A DNA stretch of 60,805 nt, counting the filler, from Globobulimina sp. (taxonomy: Eukaryota), in NCBI GenBank assembly GCA_003354225.1. It is 8 parts of 8 records of this genome, joined end to end, with 100 filler letters (N's around TTAATTAATTAA, not from the genome) between each part and the next. Parts side by side here need not be neighbours in the genome. Positions count along the whole stretch, not along the records: positions 45,725 to 53,215 come from PIVH01000150.1; 7 more parts are not named here. One strand, given 5' to 3'. Below are positions 7,528 to 53,315 of the stretch, one piece after another (positions within the stretch are counted from its first letter, which is position 1; each line of letters begins with the position of its first letter). Position numbers and translations under genes: made by a program. Under the pieces are notes generated by a model. That model saw only the letters and a list, made by a program, of their open reading frames with translations, was not told where the DNA came from and did not search any database.

Positions 7528-7627
7528 NNNNNNNNNNNNNNNNNNNNNNNNNNNNNNNNNNNNNNNNNNNNTTAATTAATTAANNNNNNNNNNNNNNNNN
7601 NNNNNNNNNNNNNNNNNNNNNNNNNNN
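7528..7627. other. Artificial contig-join spacer
   Basis: 44 N + TTAATTAATTAA + 44 N; the identical block recurs 7 times at about 7.6-kb spacing, and contig lengths decrease from 7527 to 7490. Confidence 0.98.
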
Positions 7628-15150: not shown

Positions 15151-15250
15151 NNNNNNNNNNNNNNNNNNNNNNNNNNNNNNNNNNNNNNNNNNNNTTAATT
15201 AATTAANNNNNNNNNNNNNNNNNNNNNNNNNNNNNNNNNNNNNNNNNNNN
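15151..15250. other. Artificial contig-join spacer
   Basis: N44-TTAATTAATTAA-N44. Confidence 0.98.
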
Positions 15251-18600: not shown

Positions 18601-21155
18601 TATGGCGTCACTCCGTTTGTAAAGATTGTAAAGAACATTTTTGTAATGATTGTTTAGTTGAATATCGTGGCAAAAGATGTGAAGATTGTGTCAATAACAA
18701 AGAAGTAAATGAGATGGCTGATATTATACATAATGCATTAAGGTCAATATATATGTTTGAGGTTTTTTTTGTGCCGAATGATAAAATATATTTGATTGCC
18801 AACACAATCGCAAGTTATGGGGTTGGTTATATTGTTAAATGTGGCAATTCCAAGACATGTCCAAGCAATGTTATTATTTTTGATAACAACTCGCAAATGT
18901 ATGCTAAAAAAGATTATAACAACTCACAAATTTACTATTATGAAGGACAATATTTTGATGAAAATAGAACATCCGCATTAATAAATAATCGTCGATTACG
19001 CATATTTTGTAATTATTGTACCACGCATTTAGTCCGCCAATGTTGTGTACCATTCTGTAACAGAAAAGATTCAGTTGCTGTCTGCGCACTGCATCCAGTG
19101 TGTCATAAATGTGCGAGTGGTGTGTCGGAAAAAAACGATGAACTTAAATGTTGTCGTCGTTGTAGGAAATCATTTTGTGCAGATTGTTGCATTACGTCCA
19201 TTGACTATATGAGAATGAGAGTCATGTGCTATTATTGTGAGTCATGTGCGGTTGAAATGGAAAAAAATGAAATAATTGATGTGTTGTTGAATGTATTAAA
19301 AAATGTTGTTGATGAATATATTATTGGTGTTGTAACAGATTATTGCATTGGTTATGTGTTTAAATGTGGTAATAATTATGACCAATGCGAGAATGATATA
19401 ATATTTGACAACAGATTTAAATTTAAAAAGGAACATGATAGGAATGACGAAAAAATATATTATTATTCAATTAACTCCAAACATGTAACAGGAAATAAGC
19501 AAACAGTCAACGATCCAACAGAGAAGAATCATAAATTGCGAATATTTTGTTCAAAATGTACAGGTATTCGGCTGTCAGTCTGTCTGAAGAATGCTCAATG
19601 TATCCATAAAGAATGTGGAATGTATCCAATATGTGACAATCATCCAAAATGTAAATCATGTCATAGTAATAGTCGGTATGCATTGTCAAAATGTAATATA
19701 TGTCTCGATTTTTTTTGTAGACACTGCAGATATGAGAATTCATCAACGTGTAAATCATGTGTTACAAAGCAAGAAATCAATGAATTGCGTAATATCATAT
19801 GTGAGGCATTGAAAACATTAAAATATATGCTTGAGAGTTATAATATATCGTTGCTTATTGCTGAATATTGCGTTGGTTTCGTATTTAAATGTGGTAATTT
19901 AAAGGATAACTGTGATACAAAGATAATATTTGATAATAAATTTCAATTTCATTCACGTAAAGACTGTGAGAATCGCGCAATAAACTATTATGAAGTTGAA
20001 TATTTAGCAGCCAACAGACCAACCATTTGTTTGCCAGATAATACTAAAAGACGGTTTCGAATATTTTGTAATGAGTGCTCATCAAATAAGATGGTGCGAT
20101 GTCCTGATTGTTGGCGAAGAGTGGATGTTTTACCGATATGTGGGCGACATCCAATTTGTAGTAACTGTGATAAAAAAGTGTTGCGTTCGGGAATAATAAA
20201 TTGTTGTATCTGCTTTGAATCTTATTGTGAAAGTTGTTGTTATTCGCTTGGCTATGACGAGAATGTTATTTATTGCAAAGTTTGTCTGAAGAACGTTGGT
20301 TATGAGGAGTTATACGGCGCCATTTATGCAATAATACGTAGATTAGGTTTAGGTTTTGATATAAATATTATTGGCATTATGATGGATTATTGCATGGGAT
20401 TTGCCTTTGAATGCGGTAATGTCGAAAGAAAGTGTGAAAATGATATTATTTTTGAAAATATGTTTCAATTTGGAAAAAAACACGATTTTACTATGCAAAA
20501 AGTATATTATTATCAAGTGAAATATGCGCGACATAATAAAGCAACAATATCAATGGATAATAAATTGTATAGAATATTTTGTGTAAACTGTACGAAGAGA
20601 ATTAAAAAATGTCGCGGATGTTATCAAAATAAAGAATCGGGTGAGATATCAGAATGTTGTGATCATCCAATATGTTCAAAATGTAATCAAATTATGTTTG
20701 CTTCGGAGACAAAATGTAAGAGTTGTTTCAAATATTTCTGTTATCCGCAATGTTGTATTGATATTGTTGGAAGATGTTATTGTATGCAATGTGCCATAAA
20801 TAAAGAATTTAACGATTTAATTGAATGTATAGCAAATTCGCAGTTAATATTAAAGGTAAATATGGATAGTGAAATTATAACTGTTTTGGCAGAGTATAGT
20901 GTCGGACTTATATTTCAATGTTGTAATAATATTCAGAAATGTAAGAAGAAAATCATTATTGATAATATTTGGCAATTTAAAAAGAAAATAAATTATGAAA
21001 ATAAAACAATAAAATATCGATATTTATCAAACATAGTTAAACGAAAAAGAAATAAAAGAGTAAAATTAATGAATAATAAACGATTAGTAATTTTATGTAA
21101 TGGTTGTTGTTTGGAATATAGATATATTAATAAACGCGGTGCATTGATTCGGTAA
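15666..21155 (+). CDS. Giant protein (about 1800 aa) with three SAM-like domains and about 8 Cys-rich repeats
   Basis: Exon 15666-15995 joins in frame to 16053 through GTTAAG..ACAG intron 15996-16052. SAM-like segments lie at about 16730-17280. RIFCxxC-containing units of about 170 aa run from about 17280 to the end. Confidence 0.8.
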
Positions 21156-22773: not shown

Positions 22774-22873
22774 NNNNNNNNNNNNNNNNNNNNNNNNNNN
22801 NNNNNNNNNNNNNNNNNTTAATTAATTAANNNNNNNNNNNNNNNNNNNNNNNNNNNNNNNNNNNNNNNNNNNN
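22774..22873. other. Artificial contig-join spacer
   Basis: N44-TTAATTAATTAA-N44. Confidence 0.98.
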
Positions 22874-30394: not shown

Positions 30395-30494
30395 NNNNNN
30401 NNNNNNNNNNNNNNNNNNNNNNNNNNNNNNNNNNNNNNTTAATTAATTAANNNNNNNNNNNNNNNNNNNNNNNNNNNNNNNNNNNNNNNNNNNN
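30395..30494. other. Artificial contig-join spacer
   Basis: N44-TTAATTAATTAA-N44. Confidence 0.98.
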
Positions 30495-33400
30495 TTGTTT
30501 AATAATACATTTTACCCTACTTGGAGATGGTTTTAACTTATAATCTATATTATATTTATTACAACAATTTATAGCGTGTTTTATCCAAGATTTTTTTCCT
30601 GGATTGTTGTAATATGTTATTAATTGTTCGTTAATAGCTAGTTTCACTAAATTATTATTTGTTAATGTTAATAAATGGATCAGATAGTTAATTGTTCTTT
30701 TATCTGCTTCCATTTGCATTGGCATGATGTCAGTTTCTCCATATAATACCGCTCTATGGGTATGTCTGGGAAGTTTAGCAATCATCCTAATGAATTCTCT
30801 TTGATGAACTTCAATTTTCTTAAAAGTGTTATTTGAATATTCTATAGCAGAAATACCATGTAACACTTTAGGTTGTACGTAAGTAGTCCATATTTTGGTG
30901 CCATATACGGCTTGTCGTGCTGTAGCTGATGCAGGTTGAAAGCATTTATATACTTCCTTCCTTGTTTTACCAGCTAATTCTCTTCTATGTTTTGATAGTA
31001 TATCTGCTCCTGATTTTGCAATAGTTATACCTAGATATTTAGCTTCACCTTCTTCTTTGATATTTATTGTTTTAGTCTCAGTTTCAGATATGTACATAGT
31101 TCCTAATTTCCATAATCTATCATTAATTACTTTTCTTCTTAAAGGAATAATCAAGCTTTTTGGCCCTGAAAATTCAATTTTCCATCTTTGCGCATAATTT
31201 CCTACTATTTTTAATAATTTAGTCATATTATATTCCGAAGAAGCAAATAATAACATATCATCCGCAAAAAATATGCCTGATATTATTTTTGAGCATTCAT
31301 CGGAACCTATTTCAATCCCTAAATCACTATTTTCTATTTCCCGTCCTAGGTCTGCTATATATAGCGCCCATAGACTGGGGGACATAGTGCATCCTTGTCG
31401 TAATCCGACTTCCATATCTAATGGTTCTGTTAATTGATCCTGGAACGATATTATTGCTTGAGGATTATGGTAGCTACTTTCAATAGCTCTTACTAATTTA
31501 TCTGGAAATCCATAATCTCTTAATTTTTTCCATAAACCTTTTCGCCATACTCTATCATAAGCTTTGCATATGTCAAGTAATGCTAAGGTACTATTTCTAG
31601 ATTTCGGTAATCTTTTTGCTTTTAAAACTGTATGTTGTATAACTAAAATACAGTCTTCAATTCTCTTATTGGCTCTAAAACCATGTTGAATATTACCTAA
31701 TATATTCTTTTCTTCAGTGATTTTTTCTAATCTTTTTGTAAGAATTGTTAGATACACTTTACATAAATTACATCCTAAACATAAGGTTCTGTAATTTGAT
31801 ATTTTACTTTTTGATCCTTTCTTATGTAATAATGTTACTTCTTGTACTTTTCCAATATCTGGATAGTACCCTGTATTATACCATCTATTGAATAGTAGTA
31901 ATACATTATCTTTCATTTCAGTTGGCCAATTTTTAATAAATTCTGGAGGAATATTAGTGGTTCCTGCAGAAGTGCCATTTTTTAATCTTGATATAGCTTC
32001 ATTTAACTCTTTCATCGTTAGATCTCTTTCTATATCGATTCGATCATTTCCTTTAATTATACCATCTAATCCTACTCTTTTCATTTCGTCATTAGCTTCA
32101 GGCCAAATTCCTAATGTAAAAATATCGTTCCAAAAATTTGATAAATGATTATTAATTTTTTCGGTTCCATTTATTGGTTCATTATTGTTGTCCAAAAGTG
32201 TAACCGGTTCTTTTACTCCTCTTTTTAAATGTTTCATCGTGTCATATAATTGATGAAATCTCCTTCTTGGATTAGCTAACCATTTATTATGCGCTTTTTC
32301 GACTCTAGCCATTTCAGTTTTTTGTCTTAATTCTCTTTGATCTTTTATTAATTCAAATAATTCTTTTAATAAAGCTTTCGAATCTCCATTATTATGTCTG
32401 AGATTCTTTCTTATATCAGTAATTTTGTTTTTTAATTTTTTTGCTCTATTTGATAGTCTTGCCTTTTTATTGGGTTTCTTCTTATACCCTATTGTTTGCT
32501 CGGCTGCAGTTGTCATATGATTTAATATTACATTTTCATCAAGTTCTTCCTCTTTAATTGTAGCTAATTGAATTAATTTGTCCCTATAAGGTTTCCAATT
32601 TAAGTCATCAGTTATATTCCATCTCTTTTTGTTATTATTAATATTTTGATTTGTAGATTTATTTATTTTATTTTGATATATATCAAATTCCGCAAATATG
32701 AAACAGTGATCAGCATTTCCTGTTCCTAATTGGGTATTTGTTTCATCAATATACATAGATTTTATTTTACTATAGGGAGAATTTAAAACCAAATCAAGTA
32801 CCTGAGGTTTTGTATTTTGTTTGTGAAAACCCCAGGTCCATAATCCTTTAGTTTTATTTGAGTCATTTGTTAATGTAAGATTTGAGTTATTTATAAACTC
32901 TCTAATTAGATATCCATTGTCATTTATTTCAATATGATTACCTTTAATGCCATGGATGTCATTTCCTATATGTCCATTAAAATCTCCCACCATAACAATT
33001 TCATAATTTTGTCTCATACACCATTTTATGTGGTTAATTAGTCTGAGACTTAATTCAAAATTAAATGAATGGGTAGTATTATCTCTATTACTTTGATTCT
33101 TGAAATATACAGTACAGATTGCCACTGGGCCTACATTTTGGCATAGTACCCATAAATAGTGGTTGCTTATGTCGTCATTAAAACCATCTATATCTAATTT
33201 AGTTGGTTTAATCTTATTATGACCCCATATGCTAATTCCGCCTGTTTTAGTACCAGTTTGCATCTTATGAAATCCTACATATTCATCGAAATCATGAATG
33301 TCTAACACAGTTTTTAATCTGGTTTCAACAAAACACAACACAGAAGGTTTTAATTTATTAATATTATCATCAATCAGATCAAATTTATTTTTAATAGAAC

Positions 33401-33524
33401 AGATATTATTATACAGTATTGATATATGTTTGAAATCTTTAGATTTTTCATCATTTTGAACATCATCATCTTTTGTTTCATTATCTTTACTATGTTGATC
33501 ATCATCATCATCTTGGCGTTCCAT
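30495..33524 (-). CDS. LINE ORF2: apurinic endonuclease + reverse transcriptase (frame open from 33623), 3' partial
   Basis: APE motifs ILYNN, VET, GDFNGH, LDL and ADH; RT motifs NYRTL, QHGFR, DICKAYDRV, GLRQGC.MSP, FADD and YLG. Confidence 0.95.
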
Positions 33525-33613
33525 TTTTGTTACATAAGGTGTAGAATAATTAATATTATTAATATTATTTACTAAGTTATTATTAATGTATGTTTGGGAT
33601 TTGCCGTCCCTTT

Positions 33614-36600
33614 TTAGTTTTCCTTAGGATCCAATTGTAACGATTTATTCGAAATTCCAAATGTCCATGTTAATAAAGCTTCTCTTACTATTTCAACAGC
33701 TAATACTTTCTTACCATTTTTGGTTAAGTGTATGCCATATAGAAATACTTTTAATATATCTTCTGATGAAGACATGGTTTTTACTTTCTGCAGCTGTCTT
33801 GCAGCTTGCATTATTGCATAAGTTAATTGTATATATCTAATAGGTAATACATTTTCTACTGCATATGAATGCACTTTTTGTGCCATATATCTTTCGATTT
33901 CTAATGATAAATTCATATGTCCCGGATCGTCAATATTGCGCAAATATTCAGATTGTCCACCTCCTTGGATAGGTTGGGTGAAATTTAATAATATAGCACA
34001 ATTTGGATTTTTCTTACTAATATCATGACATATTTCAAAAGCCGTATGTAATATTTTATCGGCATATTTAATACTCCTTTCTTTAATTTGTTTTGGAGTG
34101 ATATTGTCATTAGTCATATCGGATTTCCAGCCATGTATTATGTCGCTGTAATCCATAACATATTTTAATACTATGACTTTTTCGTCACCTTTAATAAGAG
34201 TTTCTACTATCGTATGGGTTTGTCGTAACCGTAGACTTACTGCACCTTTTCCTATAGATTTTACTCCACCATATATTGGTAATCTTCGTAAAAATGTTTC
34301 ACTAAATACTTCTGTAATAGGGTCTTCTAGACCTACAGAGGTAGAGTCACCGATCATGAATATTTTCAGATACGGAAATCTTAATTTTTGGATATTAATG
34401 GATGACTGGAAAGATTCAAAGATTCTTTCTTTTAATTCATTTAATGCTAATCCACTAATAGTACCTCTTTCTCCTTCACTGCCATAAATTCTTAGGCATT
34501 CCGGAGCCCATCCATCCTTTTCATTTCCTAAATCATGATCAGTGTATGGTTTTAATACGTTAGCTTCAAGATTATTAGCTGGTATATATTTCTTTTGATA
34601 AATGATCGTGGTCATAATCGCTCTTATAGCTTCTCGATCTTCTTCTAATTTTGTTTTTCTTTCCTCTATTAATTTCTCCTGTTTACTCTTTTTACTAATA
34701 GTAGAATGTGTCGAAGATGCAGCGCTTTTGACTGAATTCGATCTTGATCTTTGTTCTCCATATGTTGGATCATATTCGTCATTACTGGTTAATTTAGGGG
34801 TTCTTCTTCTTGATGGTCTTGGTTTACTTGATGAGGCATCATAGGAACTTGGGAAATCTGGTGAGATGCTTTTTGCAGATATTCCAGATTCTGATGCCAT
34901 TGATATTACTGATGCCGATCTTGATGATTTAGCTGATGATGTTCTTGGTCTTTTACCACTACTAATTGTTGATATTCCTTGTTCAAGGTCTTTCATATTT
35001 ATATCTCTTGATGAGTCCGTTACTGCTGACCATCCATAATCCGAAATATGAATCGTAGATGTATCATCAAAGCTTTGTGCTGCTGTTAATTTGTCTTCTT
35101 TACTTTTTAATTTTGCTAATTTTTCTTTGACCTTTTTATTTGCATCAGCTAATTTTTGTTTAATCCAAGGAAGATTCGTAATATTGAATTTGGGATTATT
35201 CCTCATATCAAAATGATAAAATCTTGTTTCTCTTAATTTATCAAAATTTCCTTTTGCTAATGGTTGTTTTGATGTGCAATTGCAAATATTTAATTCTAAT
35301 TGTGTTTTAATTTCCTTTTCATTATCTAAATGTTTAATTGTCCAGAGTTGACGTAATTCTTCGAATTCTTTGTCAATTCCTTGTCTTACTATTTTAGGAG
35401 ATTCAGTATATTTGGAAATAAATTGAGAGCAAAAGTTTCCTATTACATTACCAATTAAATTTCCTTCGTAATTTTCTCCTTCTAATTTGTCAATAAATAT
35501 ATTTTTATTTCGGGCATTATATCCGATGCCCAATTCTTTATTTGTTGATAAAAACAAGAATGTCACATCTTCATAATGTCCAATTTTTCCTAATAATGTT
35601 GCGAATTTTTGATCATATTCGATTCTAATTCGTAACCAGTCATTAAATTTTGTTGATTTATACGCTGCATTAATTTCTTCTGAATAATCTTGATAATTTT
35701 TAATAGGAAGATCTTCTAATAGTGATGTATAGATTTCATAAGTCATCCGTTGAGTTAATTTCCATACTAAATCCCAGTCTTTACATGTGATGGCCATTTG
35801 TACTTTTAAGTAATGGTCAAAACATGTATAAGTAACACTACCTTCGTAGTCCCAGGGAAGGGTATCATCTTCATCAATTTTAGATTCAAAAGGGAATACA
35901 CCTTCTGTTAATGATTCATAACCCCATGAAAATGGGTCATTTTTCGTACCTCCTACTAAAAATTCGTTATGTAGTCTTAATGGTTTTTCTTGAATTAGTA
36001 CATTATCTTCAGATCTCTCTTCTGTTGTAGAAGTTGCCGTCGGATATTGTATTGATAAATTTTTTACTAATATTTCTAATTCATTAATACGTCGTTCATA
36101 ATCGTCATTAGTATTATTTGATATTCCCAAATCTCTATTGACTCCTTTTTGGATTTCTTCATCTAATAGAGATTTGTATCCTAATAACTCGTTTGATATT
36201 ATTCTTAATTGATTTTGTAAATTAGTTACTCTTGAATCATCTATTTTACATTCATGATCAGAAGAATCTTGTAAATGTTTTTTTAGATTCTCTTTCGTAG
36301 ATATATTATGAGCTTGTGCTTTACTAGCCATACGCAAATTATTAGTTATGAAAACCGAATTTACTGAAGCAAATTTGGTCAAATTAACCAAGGATTGCAT
36401 AGAAGAGTGGCACGTGGCCGTTAATTTAATACTAATTTCGTAAAACATTTTATGAATTGTCATTAAAGCATTATAAATTTCTGTACCTTTTGGTACATTA
36501 TTTTCACTTTCTAATATTAATTTCATAATCTCACTATGTTCTTGTAACATTTGAGACATGTTTTCTCTAGTTGCATGTGTATTTAATATTAATTCAGATA

Positions 36601-37951
36601 ATTGAAGTCCTGATTGTTCAATAAAGGAATGTCTATCTTTAGCGATACCTTTATTGTTATCACTGACAAACGTATCCTTTAATAAATTTTCATTTTGAGC
36701 AGAGAATTTATAGGTTCTGTTACTCGAAACAGTAATATTTTTATTTTCTGTTAATGTTACTGCTTCATCAATTAATTTTTTGTATTCATCTTCTCTTGGA
36801 GATAAATTAGATGGAACCATAGTTAATCTATCGTCTTCTTGTTGACCTAGTCCCATAGGCGTTGTGCCTTGATTAGGGATTTCGGTCGAAGTACTAATAT
36901 TACTATTATTCAAATTGTCGTTTGGGTCCTGCATATTACCTGAAACAAAAACATTATTAGATGCAGAATTATTCATAGCTAAATCTAATTCATCACATTT
37001 AATCATATCTTTCACACGATCAGCTTCTTGTAAATTTTTCACAATTACTGACGTCGTTCGTTTTTTATTTAGTGATGAATGAGTATTTTCGTACTTTTTA
37101 TACATATTACGAACTTTTTGTTCAGATTTACTATAATATACGGTACTCAATTTCTTATTTCTATGTGGAGTATTACTCATAATAAAATAATAATAAAAAA
37201 ATTTAATAAAATTTAATTTACTTACTAATTTTGATTTCTTAATATTTGGAAATCTTCTTTTACTTGATATTCTTTTATTAAAGCCAGATTCGGAAAACAA
37301 AAAATAAGGCACGATGATTTCACCCGTATTCAATAAATCACCCGTATAATCGCTTTGTTTTCTTCGAGAATGACGAGAAACACGAAAACTTTTTTTGAAG
37401 TGGTGTGTACCGTATCGTCGCTCAGCGTTCGGGTTACTGTATAAATATTTGGTTTTTGGTTTAATGTCAACGTTTTTACTAAGGACGTTACTAACACGAG
37501 CTCCAATTGGTGCACCATTTTCATACAAACAGTGCCCATTTGATTTCGTCGTCGTTTTTGTCCTAATATTCTTTGATAAATATCTCAAAAATTTTGAAAT
37601 TTTTCCCATTTTTTTTTGATTTAAAGTACTTAAATTACTATATTTAACATCTTTGTCATAGGAATTAATAAAATTCTTGATATTCGTAGTGGGAGCTATT
37701 TTTTTGTGTCCCTCCTTACTTTTTTCATGTTGTATTTTGAGCTCCGAAGGAATACATTTTGATGGCTCAGTGCGAACTATTTCTGAGTTTTCATGTAAAC
37801 TGCGCCCATCTGTTCCAGTATTATTAATCGATATATTAATTGAAATATTTTTAGCCTTTAAATTACTAGGTATTTTAATGATTATACTTTCATCCATGTC
37901 TGAAGGTAAGCTATTTGAGATTTTTTCACTTATAGCTTTTGGCCCAACCAA
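33614..37951 (-). CDS. LINE ORF1 (1445 aa or more): coiled coil, NADAR-like domain (about 35420-35965), Ser-rich linker, SGNH-like domain (about 33650-34370)
   Basis: NADAR-like DPFSWGY..TYTCFDHYLKVQMA..ELGIG..GNLIGNVI; SGNH-like IFMIGDS..YGIHLTKNGKKVLA. Confidence 0.85.
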   Translation of the reverse strand: MVGPKAISEKISNSLPSDMDESIIIKIPSNLKAKNISINISINNTGTDGRSLHENSEIVRTEPSKCIPSELKIQHEKSKEGHKKIAPTTNIKNFINSYDKDVKYSNLSTLNQKKMGKISKFLRYLSKNIRTKTTTKSNGHCLYENGAPIGARVSNVLSKNVDIKPKTKYLYSNPNAERRYGTHHFKKSFRVSRHSRRKQSDYTGDLLNTGEIIVPYFLFSESGFNKRISSKRRFPNIKKSKLVSKLNFIKFFYYYFIMSNTPHRNKKLSTVYYSKSEQKVRNMYKKYENTHSSLNKKRTTSVIVKNLQEADRVKDMIKCDELDLAMNNSASNNVFVSGNMQDPNDNLNNSNISTSTEIPNQGTTPMGLGQQEDDRLTMVPSNLSPREDEYKKLIDEAVTLTENKNITVSSNRTYKFSAQNENLLKDTFVSDNNKGIAKDRHSFIEQSGLQLSELILNTHATRENMSQMLQEHSEIMKLILESENNVPKGTEIYNALMTIHKMFYEISIKLTATCHSSMQSLVNLTKFASVNSVFITNNLRMASKAQAHNISTKENLKKHLQDSSDHECKIDDSRVTNLQNQLRIISNELLGYKSLLDEEIQKGVNRDLGISNNTNDDYERRINELEILVKNLSIQYPTATSTTEERSEDNVLIQEKPLRLHNEFLVGGTKNDPFSWGYESLTEGVFPFESKIDEDDTLPWDYEGSVTYTCFDHYLKVQMAITCKDWDLVWKLTQRMTYEIYTSLLEDLPIKNYQDYSEEINAAYKSTKFNDWLRIRIEYDQKFATLLGKIGHYEDVTFLFLSTNKELGIGYNARNKNIFIDKLEGENYEGNLIGNVIGNFCSQFISKYTESPKIVRQGIDKEFEELRQLWTIKHLDNEKEIKTQLELNICNCTSKQPLAKGNFDKLRETRFYHFDMRNNPKFNITNLPWIKQKLADANKKVKEKLAKLKSKEDKLTAAQSFDDTSTIHISDYGWSAVTDSSRDINMKDLEQGISTISSGKRPRTSSAKSSRSASVISMASESGISAKSISPDFPSSYDASSSKPRPSRRRTPKLTSNDEYDPTYGEQRSRSNSVKSAASSTHSTISKKSKQEKLIEERKTKLEEDREAIRAIMTTIIYQKKYIPANNLEANVLKPYTDHDLGNEKDGWAPECLRIYGSEGERGTISGLALNELKERIFESFQSSINIQKLRFPYLKIFMIGDSTSVGLEDPITEVFSETFLRRLPIYGGVKSIGKGAVSLRLRQTHTIVETLIKGDEKVIVLKYVMDYSDIIHGWKSDMTNDNITPKQIKERSIKYADKILHTAFEICHDISKKNPNCAILLNFTQPIQGGGQSEYLRNIDDPGHMNLSLEIERYMAQKVHSYAVENVLPIRYIQLTYAIMQAARQLQKVKTMSSSEDILKVFLYGIHLTKNGKKVLAVEIVREALLTWTFGISNKSLQLDPKEN

Positions 37952-38011
37952 ATTTTGGGTAGGATCCGTATTCCCTGTATTATTTAGGGTTGGTAATGGT
38001 CGAGCTACTGG

Positions 38012-38111
38012 NNNNNNNNNNNNNNNNNNNNNNNNNNNNNNNNNNNNNNNNNNNNTTAATTAATTAANNNNNNNNNNNNNNNNNNNNNNNNNNNNNNNNN
38101 NNNNNNNNNNN
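38012..38111. other. Artificial contig-join spacer
   Basis: N44-TTAATTAATTAA-N44. Confidence 0.98.
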
Positions 38112-45624: not shown

Positions 45625-45724
45625 NNNNNNNNNNNNNNNNNNNNNNNNNNNNNNNNNNNNNNNNNNNNTTAATTAATTAANNNNNNNNNNNNNNNNNNNN
45701 NNNNNNNNNNNNNNNNNNNNNNNN
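45625..45724. other. Artificial contig-join spacer
   Basis: N44-TTAATTAATTAA-N44. Confidence 0.98.
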
Positions 45725-45746
45725 TAAATTAAATAATAAATTTGAA

Positions 45747-48700
45747 ATGATATATCTGGAGCGTCAAATTAATAAATCTGAAGTGCTGCCTTTTAGACAA
45801 GACCAAATGTTACACAAACCAGAAAACGTAAAAACCTACAGTAATATTAGAGGAGTAAATACGGTAGAAATCAATACTTTGGTCCGTGTATACCTTCAAA
45901 AATTAAAAGGCAAAATAGAAAGTTCTGGAAAGAAAGGAGAATTTTGGGCTGACGACGGACACAAACAGCACGAAAAAAGGAAAAATCCACAAAAATTGCA
46001 AAGAAAACAGGAATCAAAAGAGCGAATAGGAAGAAGCGAAGCAGTAAGTATATTAATTTTTTTAAATTCCAAATTTATATGTTGTCAAAATCATCAATAT
46101 ATGCGTGTATGTAAGATGAGTAAATCTGAGACGAAAAATAAATTAGGCAATAATAGAAATGATAGATATTCAAGTAGATCAAGTAGTAGAAAAGGATATT
46201 CGTCCGTACGAAAAACGACGGTAAAAACTAAGTCAAAATTAATATTAAAATTTGAAAATGCCGAAAAAGTCAAGACGGAAAACGGTACTCTATCCGTTTC
46301 CAGTCAAGACTCAAAAGCTAACATAGGTTATATAAAAACGATGAGAAAATCATTAAAAAGGCAACGATATGCAGATAATAAAACTATTAAAAATGTAGTA
46401 GAAAATTTATTAGACAACGTTGAGGATAAGTTAAATTCTTCCGAAGGAGATGTAGGGAATAACGTAGAACTTATAGAAGAAATAATAAATATAACTCCAA
46501 TAGGAGCGCGTCCGTATCAAAGTACACCGAATACAATCTCAAGTATATTAATAGGTAGTCGTACAGTAGATCATAATTCGTTAGGTATTAGAGACCTTAT
46601 ACCGAATACGGTATGGACACCGTATATAGTAGATTATAATGCAGATAAATCAAATCAGAATATAAACTGTACGCCGAATACGGTAAGTACATCGAATATG
46701 GTAGATTATAATGTAGATACATTAAATCAGAATATAAATGTTACGACGAATATGATAGACAATATAAACCGTACGTCAAAAATAGTATGTACACCGAATA
46801 AGGTACGTACGCTGAATACGGTAGATGATAATAATCTAAGTCAAATTGACGTGACGGTAGATAATATGTCATATGTATTAAATAATATTAGTGATACATC
46901 ACATATATATGACGATATATTAGAATTGCCATGCACACCAGATAATACTATTATACAGATTGAAGCAGATACACCAAGAAAAGGACCACAGAGACAAATA
47001 AGAATGTATCATTTAGTAATTAATAAATTAGCGGCAATAGAAATTGAATTGAAGTTGAAGCCAGAAACAGAAATAGACAAAGTTACAGATCAAATCATTA
47101 GAGACACACTAATAGAAATAGATGCAATATATAGAAATGTAGAATTATTTGATATAGAAAATAGTATAATACTGTGTAAACAAATAAATAATAAACTAAA
47201 TAAGTTAGACGACATAATATACGGTATATTAGAGAAAATAGGAGTTAAAACTAAAAATCATATATGTGATGAATTAGGTAACATGAATCTTTCATTTTGT
47301 GAACTTAAAAATTTAAATATTTCAGGTATGGATAAGGAGAAAGATCCAAATTTGGAGACAACAACATCAAGCGGTACGGCAGCTGTCGGAGACCCAGAAC
47401 TTACTGAGGCGACCAATAGCATGTCGACCGCGGCAATTACTACAGAATCACAGAAAAATGTAGATAAAAATGTAGAAAATTTAACCACAGACAATACTAC
47501 AGAATCAGAAATGACAGATGAAACGGCGACAGAAGACACAAATAATTTTGATAAATCTGCGTCAATTAGAGCTATACCAGAAAATCCACATATGTACCCA
47601 GACTTTCTGGAGAGATACGTATATCCAACGAGCTTAACAGAATTCTTAGATGATATAAATACAGGTAAAGATTATATTTATGAAACTGATGAGGGAAAGA
47701 AATATAGAATGAAAAATAACACCCCTCCTATAGATATATTAGATATGTCAGTTAAAGATAAAGAATTGAATGATCTTAGAGCCCACTTTATAACCCAAGT
47801 AGCTTGGCTAATGGGATATGAAAGTGAAGAAGGTAGAATTCATATCAATAATAATACTGCAATCATAAGGAAAATTAGAACTTTTATTGATGAATGCTGT
47901 GAGAAATCTACATTACCAGTACAGGGGACTCACATGGCAGCCATCTTAAAAACAATAGAAGACCATCAAATATTATCCATGAGCAAATCTATGGACACAG
48001 ACGAAACTTTGTTGAAAACTATCAAAGAATTAACACAAATGATATTAAGAAATAATGAATCAGTTTTTACAATAAATAAAGCAATTAGAACTACGATATC
48101 AAATCAGAAAAAAGTTGAAAATAATATTAAGGCTGTGTCAACTTCAGTAAGTGTAGAACATAGTGAACAGAAAAAGAAAAACGACGTATTTACGTTAAAT
48201 TTCACAAAAATGTCTAAACAACTTGAACAATTAAATTTAGACAATATCAAATACAAGAAAGAAAATGTGGAATTAAAAGCGGAAGTAGAAAAAAATAAAT
48301 CGGAATTGGGTAAGATAAAGGTGCTGATCGGTCAGTTAAGCGGAACCTCCATCCAGCAACAACGACCTGTATCTGCACCAACAACACCCTCGGTACATAC
48401 AAAGAATATTGAAGATTTAAAAATTGAAATAGAAAAAAATAGAACTGAAATGGGTAATATAAGGATGATGATCGGTCAGTTAAGTGGAGTCCAACAACAA
48501 CGACCTGAACCCACACCTATAATACCTCCTGTTGAAGAAATGCCACAATTAAGAGACAAAAAAGATATTTTAATTGGAGGATGTAAAGGATGTCCTTTCA
48601 ACTTCGATTATTTAACAGAAATTAGAATTGTAACTAAAATGACAGAAGATGCTAAAGATGAATTTGTATCATATCATAGCTTTAACCACTATATTATGAT

Positions 48701-51011
48701 GCAAATGGCTATTGCTTGTTTAGACAAACAATTAATTAGACGATTAGCAGTTATAAAAAATAAATTATATTTCGAATATATACTGCAAAGATGTCCTATA
48801 GAAAAATATCAAGAAAATAAAGACCAATTTACAGCCCAATGGATAGCTGAACATTATAAACAATTCATATTATGTATAATGAGGAGAAATTTAGCCATGA
48901 GTGCTTTATGTGGTAAAATTGGCGCTGAAGAACTAACCCCAAAATTTTTAATCTCTGATAAAAATTTGGGTATTGGTTATGACGCTAATACAGAAAATAT
49001 ATATTTAAATCAATTAGAAATAAATTCAGCTGGCTCAAATTTACTAGGCAAAATTGTACATGATTTATGTGCAGATTCAAAAGATAATTATTTAAAATTA
49101 GACAAAAATAATAAAGATCAAACAGATATAGAATTTAAGCAATATTGTGAATATTGGAGTATTATGGATACTAAAGATAATGAAATAATAAGTAATGCTA
49201 GATTAGCAGCAATCAGAAATAATATATGGATTAAAAGCGTTACGTTAGTAGGCGATTACGACAATATAAGAAAAGAAAGATTATCGTTCGCAGATAAACA
49301 ATTTGAACCAAATATGAAATTAATAGAAGCTCCTTGGATAACAAAAATATCAAGATCGGAATTGAAAGAAGTCCAAAAAGGGGTTAGAAAGAAATATAGA
49401 GAAAATTCAAATGAATATAAAAAAGAATTAGAAATACAATTGCAACTGTTACGAAAAGAAAAAATCGAACATGATGCAATTAAATTATCAGAATCAGATA
49501 CAAGTAGTACGGATTTATTTAATCCAATGTCAGTAATATTAGGTAAAAGTTCTGCAACAGATTTAGATCCTGATATAGAAATATTAGATAAAGTAGATGA
49601 TGATAATTCAGGACAAAATTTAGATTTAGATAGAAATGTTCTAAGTGCAGCTTCATCTGCAAGTTATGATGGAGAGGATGTATTTAGAAAACCAGAGCCA
49701 TGGGAATTTCAGAGAAAATCACGAGGTCTAAGAAGAGGTGGGAGATATCCTAGAGGAAACGATAGGATCTCGCCTCCTTTTCGACCACCTCCACAAGATC
49801 AAGATGATAGAAGATCAACATCACGAGATAGATATGATTCAGAAAAACCTGCTTATTCCTTTGTAAATAGAGGTGGACATCAAGTACAATGGTCTGCAGC
49901 AAAAATTTTTGGTTTATCCAAACGAAAGACATATGGATCACAAGATAGTATAACCTCAGATGAACATAAATTTCAGAAAATTATGAGTGCAACAGAAAAA
50001 TTAGATATAGCTAAAGGCAGATGCAGAAAAATTCCATATAAAAGAGAGTTCAATGAAGACTTTCAATATCATAACAAAACATTCTTAGATATAACAGCAT
50101 TTTATATAGATAAAGATGTACACGGTGATAAATGCAAAAATATAGACGGAGCAGATATAAAAGGGATACCTATAATCCCTTTACCATTAGAAATTATGGC
50201 AGATAGAAAAGGTATTAATAAATTTGGACCTAGATATGATACAAGAATAACATATAAAATGCCAGGTAATTTGCAATTATCAATAATAGGAGATTCAACA
50301 ACATATGGATTAGAATATGTTCTAGATCTTACAGCAAAAGAATCTGAAGTAAAACCCAATGTACATTATTTAGGCATGAAATCATCAGGAAGTGCCTTAT
50401 TAAGTTGTAGAGTCAGACAAATGGCACCCGTTATCCCTGCATTAACAATGGGAGACGAGGATGTCATTGTGATAAAAGGCATATTAGATTTAGCAGATAT
50501 TGTACATACATATTATGGTGCAGGTAAAGTCCAAGATTCTTGGAAACCTTTTGTAGATGAAATGGCAGCAGATATATCTAGAATTACACACAATATACAT
50601 GGTATACATAACAATGTATTAATGCTGATTAATTTTACAACACCAATATTATCAAATAAAAATTATATGACAGATAATAATGATCCTGGATTTTTGATAT
50701 TAATCCAGGAAATAGAAAATTATTTAGCAGATAGAGTAAATGAATTATCAAGACAATTTAAAATTCCAGTTAGATATATTATGCTTGCTTCAGCAATTAT
50801 AGAACAAACCTATAAATTAAAAAAAGAAGCTGAAAAGGAAGCACAAGAACTAATTTCAATAGAAGATTCCTTAGGTAAATTTGTATCAGGTATTAAATTG
50901 ACAAGAAATGGAAACAAGATTTTGGCCAATGAAATATTTAGAGAAATGGTCACTGGTTGGACCTCTTTTGTTGATGCGAAGATTTTATCCGGAAAGAAGT
51001 CGGAAAACTAG
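45747..51011 (+). CDS. LINE ORF1 (1754 aa): repeats, coiled coil, NADAR-like domain (about 48560-49080), SGNH-like domain (about 50270-50960)
   Basis: NADAR-like CPFNFDY..SYHSFNHYIMMQMA..DKNLGIG..GSNLLGKIVHDL; SGNH-like SIIGDST..SGIKLTRNGNKILANEI. Confidence 0.85.
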   Translation: MIYLERQINKSEVLPFRQDQMLHKPENVKTYSNIRGVNTVEINTLVRVYLQKLKGKIESSGKKGEFWADDGHKQHEKRKNPQKLQRKQESKERIGRSEAVSILIFLNSKFICCQNHQYMRVCKMSKSETKNKLGNNRNDRYSSRSSSRKGYSSVRKTTVKTKSKLILKFENAEKVKTENGTLSVSSQDSKANIGYIKTMRKSLKRQRYADNKTIKNVVENLLDNVEDKLNSSEGDVGNNVELIEEIINITPIGARPYQSTPNTISSILIGSRTVDHNSLGIRDLIPNTVWTPYIVDYNADKSNQNINCTPNTVSTSNMVDYNVDTLNQNINVTTNMIDNINRTSKIVCTPNKVRTLNTVDDNNLSQIDVTVDNMSYVLNNISDTSHIYDDILELPCTPDNTIIQIEADTPRKGPQRQIRMYHLVINKLAAIEIELKLKPETEIDKVTDQIIRDTLIEIDAIYRNVELFDIENSIILCKQINNKLNKLDDIIYGILEKIGVKTKNHICDELGNMNLSFCELKNLNISGMDKEKDPNLETTTSSGTAAVGDPELTEATNSMSTAAITTESQKNVDKNVENLTTDNTTESEMTDETATEDTNNFDKSASIRAIPENPHMYPDFLERYVYPTSLTEFLDDINTGKDYIYETDEGKKYRMKNNTPPIDILDMSVKDKELNDLRAHFITQVAWLMGYESEEGRIHINNNTAIIRKIRTFIDECCEKSTLPVQGTHMAAILKTIEDHQILSMSKSMDTDETLLKTIKELTQMILRNNESVFTINKAIRTTISNQKKVENNIKAVSTSVSVEHSEQKKKNDVFTLNFTKMSKQLEQLNLDNIKYKKENVELKAEVEKNKSELGKIKVLIGQLSGTSIQQQRPVSAPTTPSVHTKNIEDLKIEIEKNRTEMGNIRMMIGQLSGVQQQRPEPTPIIPPVEEMPQLRDKKDILIGGCKGCPFNFDYLTEIRIVTKMTEDAKDEFVSYHSFNHYIMMQMAIACLDKQLIRRLAVIKNKLYFEYILQRCPIEKYQENKDQFTAQWIAEHYKQFILCIMRRNLAMSALCGKIGAEELTPKFLISDKNLGIGYDANTENIYLNQLEINSAGSNLLGKIVHDLCADSKDNYLKLDKNNKDQTDIEFKQYCEYWSIMDTKDNEIISNARLAAIRNNIWIKSVTLVGDYDNIRKERLSFADKQFEPNMKLIEAPWITKISRSELKEVQKGVRKKYRENSNEYKKELEIQLQLLRKEKIEHDAIKLSESDTSSTDLFNPMSVILGKSSATDLDPDIEILDKVDDDNSGQNLDLDRNVLSAASSASYDGEDVFRKPEPWEFQRKSRGLRRGGRYPRGNDRISPPFRPPPQDQDDRRSTSRDRYDSEKPAYSFVNRGGHQVQWSAAKIFGLSKRKTYGSQDSITSDEHKFQKIMSATEKLDIAKGRCRKIPYKREFNEDFQYHNKTFLDITAFYIDKDVHGDKCKNIDGADIKGIPIIPLPLEIMADRKGINKFGPRYDTRITYKMPGNLQLSIIGDSTTYGLEYVLDLTAKESEVKPNVHYLGMKSSGSALLSCRVRQMAPVIPALTMGDEDVIVIKGILDLADIVHTYYGAGKVQDSWKPFVDEMAADISRITHNIHGIHNNVLMLINFTTPILSNKNYMTDNNDPGFLILIQEIENYLADRVNELSRQFKIPVRYIMLASAIIEQTYKLKKEAEKEAQELISIEDSLGKFVSGIKLTRNGNKILANEIFREMVTGWTSFVDAKILSGKKSEN
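46527..46860 (+). repeat. Degenerate coding repeats (about 72-75 bp unit) in ORF1
   Basis: ccgaata starts at 46527, 46602, 46674 and 46794; PNTV..VDYN..NQNIN peptide units. Confidence 0.75.
48260..48540 (+). repeat. About 144-bp internal duplication in ORF1 coiled coil
   Basis: EKNKSELGKIKVLIGQLSG..QQQRP vs EKNRTEMGNIRMMIGQLSG.QQQRP. Confidence 0.8.
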
Positions 51012-53215
51012 ATAAGGTCAGTACAATAACTAGTTTTCACAATAATCGAAACATTAATAATACTCATATTTCAGATGCTCAGAATATAAACAAACCACAA
51101 AGATGGTTCAAAGAAAAAAGATCCAAAGATAAGAAATTATATTTGGATCAAAATATTGATATATTATATAATAATGTATTATCTATGAATTCTAAAATAG
51201 ATATTATAAATGAACATTTAAAAGAAATAAATATAGATATTATATGTTGTGTTGAAACAAGATACAAAAACATACTAGACACACATAAAATACAGGGATA
51301 TGATAGTTTCCACAAAATGCAACCTGATTGCAAAACAGGAGGTATTAGTGTATGGGCAAAAGTAGATTCTAAATCTACTAGATTAGATATCGATGATATA
51401 GACGACGAAATTGCGACAAATTATTTATGGATATTATGTCAAAATAGAAATATGACTGCTATATGTACTGTATATTTAAGAAACCAAGGAGATAAAAAGG
51501 CTATGGATACAAATACTAAAATATGTCAAAGACTAGCACAGCATATTAACTGGTGCAAAATTAGGAATTATAATATTATAATAATAGGTGATTTCAATGG
51601 ACATATCGGAAACGATGATTTAGGAATTAGTAATAATCATGAAGCAATAAATAGTAATGGCCATATTGTACGTAATTTTATTAAAAATACAAATATGATA
51701 TTGGCAAATAACGATAAAGAAACCTCAGGTACATGGACTTGGGGATATCGTAGAAAGAACACTAAACCTCAAATACTAGACTTAATATTAAGGAGCGAAA
51801 AAGTCATAAATTTCGACACTATTATAGACGAAGAAAATATTAGATATGGAAATGGAAATAAAGACCATTGTTTTATATATGGAAAATTTAGAGTAAAATT
51901 TAAACCTCTAGATGAAACCATTAAAAGTAAAAAACAAAGATGGAATATTAAAGATGACACAGATTGGATCCCTTTTAAAGAGAATATTAAAATAAACTTA
52001 GAAAATAGACAAAAACTAAACGATATTGATGAGACTGAAATAATAGATATTATAGGAAAATCGGGAGAAGATACAATAGGATATAAAAGTGATAAAATAA
52101 AAAAACCTAGAGAATCAAAACAAATCCAACAAATTTCTCTGGAGATTAGAAATATTAGAAAGAAATTACGCCATAAATTAGAATTTAAAGGGAATTTAAT
52201 TAATGAATTATTTATGAAAATAAGAGAAAAAAAACAAATAATAATGAGGGCAGAAATGGCTAGAATAGAAAAAGCACATGATAAATGGATTAAAAACCCT
52301 AAAAGAAAATTTCATCAATTATACGATACTATGAAAACTCTAAAACGAGGAGTAGTAGAAAAAGTTACATTGATAGATGAAGATAAGAATCCAATTATAG
52401 GTGAAGAGAAGATTAAAACTCATATAGCAGAATTTTGGACTGATATATTTACTCTAGGTATATGGCCTGAGGCCAATGATAATATGAAAAGATTAGGACT
52501 CAGTAATATTATCAATGGTGCAGATAAATTAGATTTAGAAAATGAAATAACAACTAAAGAATTAAAAGAAGCAATCAATAAATTAAAAAATAATACATCA
52601 TCCGGTTCAACGAATTTACCACCAGAATTTCTCAAAAATTGGCCAATAGAAATGATAGAAACAGTAAAAGTATTATTTAATAAATGGTATGATACAAGCT
52701 ATTTTCCAGATATAGGTAAAACCCAAGAAGTGACATTATTACACAAAAAAGGTTCAAAAAGTAAAATTAAAAATTACAGAACCCTAAGTTTAGGATGTAA
52801 TCTCTGTAAATTATATTTACATATATTAACGAAGAGATTGGAGTCAATTACAGAAAAGAAAAATATATTAGGATATATCCAACATGGATTTAGAGCAAAT
52901 AAGAGAATTGAAGATTGTATATTGGTTATTCAACATACAATACAAAGAGCTAGAAAATTAAGAGCATCAGAATCTCCAACTATAGCATTATTAGATATAT
53001 GTAAAGCATATGATAGAGTTTGGAGAGAAGGATTATGGAAAAAATTAAGAGAATATGGCTTTCCAGATAAATTAGTAGATGCAATCAAGAGTAGCTACCA
53101 AAATCCAGGAGCTACTATAACATTCCAAGGTATAAAAACTGACAGACTAAAAATGCCAGTAGGATTAAGACAAGGTTGTACAATGTCTCCAACCTTATGG
53201 GCATTATATATATCA
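51002..53215 (+). CDS. LINE ORF2 (APE + RT), no ATG upstream of the endonuclease, 3' partial
   Basis: Frame open from 50975; ILYNN, VETR, GDFNGH, KDH, DICKAYDRV and GLRQGCTMSP. Confidence 0.92.
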
Positions 53216-53315
53216 NNNNNNNNNNNNNNNNNNNNNNNNNNNNNNNNNNNNNNNNNNNNTTAATTAATTAANNNNNNNNNNNNNNNNNNNNNNNNNNNNN
53301 NNNNNNNNNNNNNNN
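53216..53315. other. Artificial contig-join spacer
   Basis: N44-TTAATTAATTAA-N44. Confidence 0.98.

Follow-up and report, generated by a model that had tools for sequence, protein, structure and literature searches.

Candidate frameshift and readthrough signals at the ORF1/ORF2 junction in a family of LINE retrotransposons

The DNA analysed here, which we call the window, is a 60,805-nucleotide (nt) stretch of the Globobulimina sp. assembly GCA_003354225.1. It contains parts of two related long interspersed nuclear elements (LINEs), LINE2 (the whole of contig PIVH01000150.1) and LINE1, in which the second open reading frame (ORF2) lies in the −1 frame relative to the end of the first (ORF1). 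We consider it probable that ORF2 of these two elements, and of a relative designated L001, is made as an ORF1–ORF2 fusion by low-level −1 ribosomal frameshifting beside a 'shifty stop', and that two further relatives, L002 and L003, would arrive at the same fusion by stop-codon readthrough. We propose more tentatively that the family makes its ORF2 protein (ORF2p) only as a fusion, by way of three interchangeable signals: a structure-independent −1 shifty stop (G_GAA_AAC), UGA-CUAG and UAA-CAA-UUA. This broader proposal is a reading we take seriously but would not be surprised to see fail. The argument draws on the frames, their conservation, the choice of codons, the open spacers and the stop contexts, all of which can be read directly from the DNA.

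LINE2 is an APE-type (apurinic/apyrimidinic endonuclease) non-LTR (non-long terminal repeat) retrotransposon, and the five elements are well separated in sequence. Their ORF2 proteins form two groups, LINE1 with L001 (63% identity) and LINE2 with L002 and L003 (63-66%), with 54-57% identity between the groups and 56% between LINE2 and LINE1 themselves. The ORF1 proteins of LINE1 and LINE2 share 27% identity over about 830 residues. The APE region can be aligned in all five.

At the junction, the same nine nucleotides, GGAAAACTA (GGAAAAC followed by TA), stand in phase at the very end of ORF1 in all three elements with the −1 arrangement. The heptamer adjoins the stop codon in LINE1 and LINE2 and is 3 nt away from it in L001. 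Its surroundings are almost unalignable, with only scattered agreement in the 36 nt on either side. The codon preceding GAA ends in G each time, be it AAG (12.9% of Lys codons), TCG (6.4% of Ser codons) or CGG (3.0% of Arg codons), and codons ending in G make up 10.3% of the 11,179 codons in the elements. The Asn codon of the heptamer is AAC rather than AAT in all three cases, and AAC accounts for 22.7% of Asn codons. The conservation of heptamer and stop is more than chance would give, and it lies at the RNA level, maintained through rare synonymous codons. LINE1 narrows the site further. Its −1 frame has a TAA directly 5′ of GGA, the overlap between ORF1 and ORF2 is only the 10 nt GGAAAACTAA, and any shift must therefore happen there.

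These findings bear out much of the first-pass annotation of LINE2. It had read the end of ORF1 as TCG GAA AAC TAG with the heptamer at 51002-51008, the −1 frame as open from 50975 and the first ORF2 ATG as falling past the first endonuclease strand, and each of these is so; the ATG follows the residues DILYNNVLS. It had also called the junction a shared one, and the same heptamer is indeed present in LINE1 as well as in L001.

In L002 and L003, ORF2 is in the same frame as ORF1, and the two are parted by an in-frame stop. Two classes of leaky context are relevant here, type II (UGA-CUA/CGG) and type I (stop-CAR-YYA), of which CAR-YYA works on UAA too, and UAA-CAA-UUA is a natural readthrough site in pomoviruses (Firth & Brierley 2012). 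The stop of L002, TGA-CTA-G, fits the type II context and that of L003, TAA-CAA-TTA, fits type I. Among the 2,590 stop triplets of the five elements, only 49 are in such contexts, 7 being followed by CARYYA and 42 by CTA or CGG, with 4 followed by CTAG; both junction stops would fall in a leaky context by chance with a probability of about 4e-4. We regard two different leaky stops, placed at the boundary where the sister elements carry the heptamer, as the strongest argument that these junctions may all serve one goal, the continuation of ORF1 into ORF2.

The DNA between the junction and the first APE strand points the same way. These spacers measure 68, 62, 67, 102 and 55 codons in the five elements, and every one is free of stops in the ORF2 frame (shuffle P of 0.0001-0.002 per element), while the other two frames contain 3-20 stops. 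Composition was determined for three of the spacers, at about 46-49% A. The ORF2 frame opens 7-34 nt from the ORF1 stop in the three −1 elements and directly after the stop in L002 and L003. Stop-free spacers of this kind imply that translation of ORF2 enters at or very near the junction.

The lack of a usable AUG, which the first-pass annotation had offered as independent support for obligatory recoding, turns out to be a weak argument. About 0.9-1.1 ATGs are expected per spacer (1.1 in LINE2), and the spacers of LINE2, L002 and L003 have none, that of LINE1 has one and that of L001 has two (codons 44 and 48). The missing ATG in the LINE2 spacer is thus not more than chance would produce and adds little, and the LINE1 ATG ahead of the APE domain means that lack of an AUG is not a feature of the family. 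The case for recoding itself held up, on the conserved heptamer, the rare codons, the open spacers and the leaky-stop sisters, and on the ends of homologous ORF1 proteins.

To these ends we now turn. An exhaustive profile search with the ORF1 C-terminal domain among 1.84 billion representative proteins returned six proteins, one of which is the ORF1 of L001 itself. A search with profile A3 returned P0046 only, and a word search for ORF1 homologues in the range of 814-2,592 residues returned none. In an alignment of nine tails, the sequence past the last conserved Trp varies in both length and composition, and one Asn near the end is invariant (9/9). The tails end in KEN, SEN, RENY, TEN, TEN, PEN, QGNE, SGN and RPN, the last belonging to the readthrough element L002; eight of the nine homologues thus have E-N or G-N. 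These are the residues that heptamers of the G_GAA_AAC or G_GGA_AAC type would encode. In all eight, the residue before E-N or G-N can be specified by an NNG codon, which is weakly significant (P = 0.04).

The mechanism that we envisage is as follows. ORF2 would have no start of its own and would be translated as an extension of ORF1 in small amounts, much as in Gag-Pol. At G_GAA_AAC in LINE2, LINE1 and L001, a small share of the ribosomes would slip back by one base. In the A site, tRNA-Asn would exchange AAC for AAA; in the P site, tRNA-Glu would exchange GAA for GGA, leaving a G.U pair at the centre. The ribosome would then resume at CUA in the ORF2 frame, and the predicted trans-frame peptide of LINE2 is ...KKSEN|LDKVS.... 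Lying 0 or 3 nt further on, the ORF1 stop probably contributes to the signal as a shifty stop, and a 3′ RNA structure is seemingly not required. In L002 and L003, the same end would be reached by reading through the in-frame leaky stop. The expected product is an ORF1p–ORF2p fusion of about 3,000 residues, which would stay uncleaved because the elements encode no protease. We infer the slippage itself, its efficiency, its tandem or single-tRNA mode and the identity of the fusion with the active protein from the features described above. One sense codon stands between heptamer and stop in L001, which argues for tandem slippage; the alternative would be that only the P-site tRNA slips while the stop occupies the A site.

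Several observations weigh against frameshifting and readthrough as the route to ORF2. The A-site part of the heptamer, A_AAC, is canonical. The P-site part, G_GAA, is not homopolymeric, so the heptamer departs from the canonical X_XXY_YYZ, and re-pairing of GAA to GGA is imperfect, with a G.U pair left in the middle. The same heptamer also occurs in phase a second time in the LINE2 ORF1 frame, at 46277-46283. In LINE1 and L001, the APE domain is preceded by in-frame ATGs. Folding of the 60-100 nt 3′ of the heptamer was no better than that of shuffled sequences in LINE1, LINE2 and L001 (z of −1.4 to +2.0), and no downstream structure common to these three −1 elements was found, pseudoknots and long-range pairing not having been searched. 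Efficiency may be very low, because no stimulatory structure was found or is conserved 5-9 nt downstream. The sample is small too. Only five junctions can be read as DNA, from few assemblies and each in one contig only, and the nine tails comprise four elements with DNA and five homologues (P0042-P0046) known from protein alone. Finally, a precedent among LINEs studied at the bench points elsewhere: human L1 is reported to produce ORF2p not as a fusion but by AUG-independent (re)initiation, of a mechanism described as unknown (Atkins et al. 2016; PMC1965478).

That precedent leads to the alternative we take most seriously, in which a few ribosomes resume on a nearby non-AUG codon after terminating, or otherwise start without an AUG, and make a separate ORF2p, as proposed for mammalian L1. 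We judge it unlikely, though it deserves attention. It accommodates both frame arrangements at once, since the ORF2 frame opens close to the ORF1 stop in each, it has no need of the stimulatory structure that we did not find, and the three −1 elements have a weak near-cognate codon (AGG, AAG and AGG) at codon 5 of the ORF2 frame. Counter to this, reinitiation leaves unexplained why GGAAAAC is kept by rare synonymous codons and why the tails of distant homologues end in E-N or G-N, and it does not account for the classical readthrough contexts of both in-frame elements. No element has an AUG within 33 codons of the stop, and three of the five have none before the APE domain. The 150 nt leading up to the stop contain no TGGGA, motif 1 of the calicivirus-type termination upstream ribosomal binding site (TURBS), in any of the five elements. 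These two negatives correspond to the features of termination-reinitiation of the calicivirus or influenza B type, a start at the stop and an upstream motif complementary to 18S rRNA; AUG-independent reinitiation of the L1 type has no sequence hallmark of its own. Should reinitiation nevertheless be the answer, the conserved 9-mer would be a sequence requirement for that poorly understood process.

A different proposal, made in the first-pass annotation, keeps the −1 frameshift but makes it obligatory and possibly tuned by a 9-bp hairpin that would sequester the slip site. The pairing in LINE2, between GAAAACTAG and CTAGTTTTC, was confirmed as perfect. Its minimum free energy is −9.9 kcal/mol (z = −3.43), a value equalled or bettered by 4 of 200 dinucleotide shuffles. 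The 7.5-kb LINE2 contig contains 4 inverted repeats of this sort, with a 9-nt seed and separate arms, and we estimate the coincidence of one such repeat falling exactly on the junction at about 2%. The tuning was not supported. The hairpin has no counterpart in LINE1 (which has only a 4-bp GGGA/UCCC stem), in L001 (no stable stem) or in the homologous stretch of L002, and nothing downstream is shared. Its stem is AU-rich and weak. Its 5′ arm, being the slip site and stop themselves, would be unwound while the site is in the decoding centre and is not at the position of known 3′ stimulators, so that it could form no 3′ roadblock. Tuning by this hairpin is accordingly improbable in our view; the structure is mildly unusual, is not conserved, and is incidental or at most a minor modulator. 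Internal initiation at the first ORF2-frame AUG would leave LINE1 and L001 with a complete APE domain and LINE2, as a decaying copy, with a shortened and possibly dead one. The ATGs ahead of the APE domain in LINE1 and L001 suit this idea, such ATGs were taken by gene callers as the starts of the database proteins P0005 and P0006, and the 5′ part of LINE2 is at about single-copy depth. Yet ORF2 frames of 747 to 1,193 codons have stayed open, in DNA of 30% GC, in LINE2, L002 and L003, where the first APE strand is not preceded by any ATG; the spacer upstream of any ATG is stop-free throughout, unexpectedly if it is untranslated; and a ribosome would need to pass 4-6 kb of ORF1 before reaching the AUG. 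We consider this a very doubtful explanation. That the frame arrangement is a mere accident of decayed or mis-assembled copies, with no function, is the least credible case of all, even though the assemblies behind these contigs are fragmented. Both ORFs have remained open in five independent elements (over 0.2-1.9 thousand and 0.75-1.25 thousand codons), and elements with an ORF2 identity of 54-63% have one −1 offset and one 9-nt sequence in common.

Other routes were considered and dropped. Transcriptional slippage would have only a run of 4 A to act on, there is no NPGP around the junction for a 2A 'StopGo' peptide, and all three stop codons are used at the junctions, which speaks against stop-codon reassignment. 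Inspection showed no GT..AG micro-intron whose excision would both take out the stop and bring the frames together, nor one that is conserved in LINE1.

Frameshifting and readthrough at the junction would be of a kind already known: Gag-Pol expression by either route is standard for retroviruses and LTR elements. The closest likeness by description is to TRE5-A and TRE3-A of Dictyostelium, APE-type LINEs in which −1 frameshifting into ORF2 has been inferred from the sequence (PMC5911963). These too are AT-rich, protist-type, two-ORF LINEs with APE and reverse transcriptase (RT) domains and a −1 ORF2 overlapping the end of ORF1. The elements described here differ in an ORF1 that is 3-4 times larger and of esterase type, in sisters that use in-frame leaky stops, and in a site that is G_GAA_AAC beside a stop; the likeness noted here is one of description. 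In the Gag-Pol systems of retroviruses and LTR retrotransposons, as here, the RT gene is a minor C-terminal extension of an upstream structural gene. Related elements in these groups may use either a frameshift or a leaky stop, as with Ty1/Ty3 versus Tca2 and with gammaretroviral readthrough (Firth & Brierley 2012, table). In contrast to those systems, the present elements are non-LTR and without protease, and no pseudoknot or stem-loop stimulator was found. Readthrough signals of types I and II are known from viruses and from a small number of cellular genes; the stop of L002 is not followed by an extended stem-loop.

For the heptamer, the nearest parallel is the umbravirus-type site G_GAU_UUU_UGG_UAG, where the nearby stop is reported to be required for frameshifting independently of structure (Atkins et al. 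2016). It shares with our site the G_GAN_NNN shape, the imperfect P-site re-pairing and, with L001, the 3-nt spacing to the stop. It differs in that the stop is adjacent in LINE1 and LINE2, the A-site codon here is A_AAC and not U_UUU, and the plant RNA virus has additional RNA elements. Human L1 is likewise a two-ORF LINE that needs ORF2p in far smaller amounts than ORF1p and whose ORF2 lacks a conventional start. However, the L1 ORFs are parted by a stop-bearing spacer and L1 makes a separate ORF2p, whereas here the frames touch or overlap and carry recoding-type signals. SART1 relies on translational coupling at UAAUG; no ATG overlaps the stop in the elements described here.

How ORF2 is translated from a bicistronic LINE RNA is a long-standing question, and for mammalian L1 the mechanism is still described as unknown (Atkins et al. 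2016). In the literature searched, subscription-only papers and supplements aside, we found no account of G_GAA_AAC or of readthrough contexts at LINE ORF1/ORF2 junctions. What is new is a non-canonical heptamer with an adjacent stop and no structure, kept across very diverged esterase-type LINEs, and the way in which a single family appears to have traded frameshifting for two distinct readthrough signals. The short junction, the conservation at synonymous sites and the leaky-stop sisters together point to a rare ORF1–ORF2 fusion made with a compact signal that is easily mutated. If this is correct, it would be the first LINE lineage in which comparative data pin down access to ORF2, and it would provide a natural case of switching between frameshifting and readthrough; the two would be exchangeable during LINE evolution. 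A structure-free, non-canonical heptamer with an adjacent stop would also join the −1 sites known in eukaryotes. The fusion would, moreover, suggest a simple route to cis preference, with the enzyme tethered to the ORF1p coat and RNA through its own ORF1 part.

The protein to which ORF2 would be joined is itself very large. ORF1 spans 1,913 codons in L001 and no fewer than 1,761 and 1,465 in LINE2 and LINE1, respectively. The ORF1 proteins of LINE2 and LINE1 match no Pfam family and no sequence in the PDB at E<=1, hence none to ZfL2-1. Their last 250 or so residues contain a GDST block, kept in every ORF1 sequence that covers the region, and a G-I-H-L-T-x-N-G block (G-I-[HK]-L-T-x-N-G in alignment A2). 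An AlphaFold model of the LINE1 homologue reached medium confidence (pLDDT 67.9, pTM 0.73), and a fold search with this model retrieved SGNH/GDSL esterases from the PDB, with 13 matches at E<=0.001 and template-modelling scores of 0.33-0.41 on the query. The model thus suggests that both elements are members of a family whose ORF1 is giant and of esterase type. The His of block V is present in LINE1 (33617-34606) and L001 (5406-6395) and is replaced by Lys in LINE2 (50019-51008) and L002 (3-599), so the esterase-like domain of the LINE2/L002 subgroup may be catalytically inactive. Esterase-type ORF1 proteins are described in ZfL2-1 and in the CR1, RTEX and Penelope groups (PMC3905857; PMC13343379), and they resemble those described here in having an SGNH-type domain after a coiled-coil-like region. 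The ZfL2-1 constructs described are of about 300 residues, versus an ORF1 of 1,465 to 1,913 or more codons here. L003 has an ORF1 of 439 residues (L003:177-1496) that keeps the coiled-coil-like part (31% identity over 54 residues to LINE2 ORF1) and is without the middle domain and the esterase-like domain; the in-frame TAA-CAA-TTA and a full ORF2 follow. Either a deletion derivative or a separate lineage with a short ORF1 could account for it.

Both elements in the window run off their contigs, so the ORF ends at 45725, 53215, 38011 and 30495 are assembly ends and not biological ones; LINE2 ORF2 is cut by the contig end and not by decay, and the LINE1 contig likewise ends inside ORF2. ORF2 matches the Pfam family RVT_1 (E = 1e-18 and 1e-28), and LINE2 ORF2 also matches Exo_endo_phos_2 (E = 3.5e-07, 30.5 bits against a cut-off of 27.4). 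The summed depth of related contigs in DNA run X1 (likeness >=80%; contig depth serves as a rough guide only) rises along LINE2 from about 7-16 in ORF1 to 30-74 in the APE region and 100-325 in the RT region. This is the pattern of a multicopy LINE family with 5′-truncated copies. Coordinates are collected in Table 1.

Table 1. Features of the elements and of the window; numbers are window positions, and sites in L001, L002 and L003 are given by their codons.
Feature	Position	Strand	Description
LINE2	45725..53215	+	Whole 7,491-nt contig; partial non-LTR retrotransposon with ORF1, junction, and APE and N-terminal RT parts of ORF2
LINE2 ORF1	45726..51008	+	Open from contig start, 1,761 codons; coiled-coil-like middle; C-terminal SGNH/GDSL-esterase-like domain at ~50019-51008
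LINE2 ORF1 end	TCG 51000-51002, GAA 51003-51005, AAC 51006-51008, TAG 51009-51011	+	Codon positions
Putative −1 slip site G_GAA_AAC	51002..51008	+	In phase with ORF1; same 7-mer in the same place in LINE1 and L001
LINE2 ORF1 stop TAG	51009..51011	+	Directly 3′ of the heptamer, in 'shifty stop' position
LINE2-specific hairpin	51003..51038	+	Perfectly paired arms at 51003-51011 and 51030-51038; 5′ arm is most of the heptamer plus the stop
LINE2 ORF2	50975..53215	+	−1 frame, reads ...KEVGKLDKV...; APE ~51173-51799, RT from ~52745; open to contig end
LINE2 pre-APE spacer	50975..51160	+	62 codons, no stop, no ATG; P(no stop) = 0.002 in 50,000 shuffles; 3 and 7 stops in the other frames
First LINE2 ORF2-frame ATG	51185..51187	+	Codon 71, past first APE strand ...DILYNNVLS; same Met position in L003
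LINE1	30495..38011	−	Whole contig; diverged element of the same family as LINE2; ORF1 38011-33617, ORF2 33623-30495
LINE1 junction G_GAA_AAC_TAA	33614..33623	−	AAG GAA AAC TAA; ORF2 in −1 frame
LINE1 ORF2-frame ATG	33522..33524	−	Codon 34, upstream of the APE domain
L001 junction			CGG GAA AAC TAT TAA; ORF2 in −1 frame; stop 3 nt past the heptamer
L002 junction			...AAT TGA CTA GAC...; ORF2 in same frame as ORF1
L003 junction			...TTA TAA CAA TTA CAG...; ORF2 in same frame as ORF1
Linkers	7528-7627, 15151-15250, 22774-22873, 30395-30494, 38012-38111, 45625-45724, 53216-53315		Seven linkers between the eight contigs

As for the relatives, two close proteins, 64% and 57% identical, came out of an ORF2 search. 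Their DNA, together with that of a third element, was then recovered by scanning genome contigs, as the loci L001, L002 and L003. These contigs are filed in a metagenome-assembled genome recorded as Gammaproteobacteria, yet they hold eukaryote-type APE/RT LINEs and look mis-binned. Their source, the 3.1-Mb genome G001, contains 9 ORF2 matches (3 of full length) and 2 matches to the ORF1 tail, and no further junction. Nor did more junctions appear in the metagenome collection scanned with alignments A1 and A2 or in the viral collection scanned with A1. A more distant LINE, L004 (21% identity), has too little upstream DNA and was left out of the comparison.

Some smaller observations concern the sequence around the heptamer. 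Just past it, the three −1 elements have in common the pattern TA...A.GG.C (51009-51020 in LINE2, 33603-33614 on the minus strand in LINE1, and L001:6393-6404). Read in the ORF2 frame this is L-x-[RK]-[DV], and L002 has L-D-V-S; the pattern may represent a conserved beginning of the trans-frame peptide or else belong to the RNA signal. One contig of run X1 (depth 8.85 of 19.1) spans the LINE2 junction with an in-frame 3-nt deletion at about 50998-51000, just 5′ of the heptamer, and presumably represents a second, related copy. The upstream GGAAAAC at 46277-46283 has no stop next to it. Slipping there would lead into a −1 frame that ends 14 codons on, and would do no more than abort a few ribosomes.

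The window itself consists of eight whole contigs set end to end in descending order of length, from 7,527 to 7,490 nt, with seven linkers of the form N44-TTAATTAATTAA-N44 between them. Being separate contigs, they make features on different pieces no neighbours in the genome. Among the genes on the other pieces are an intron-poor kinase, an actin-like gene and an alpha-mannosidase-like gene, which fits an AT-rich microbial eukaryote. Positions 16005-21155 on the plus strand hold an open frame of 1,716 codons in which a Cys-rich module of about 170 residues is repeated many times over, with C-x2-C pairs and the recurring pattern '...IYYYE...LRIFC..C...'.

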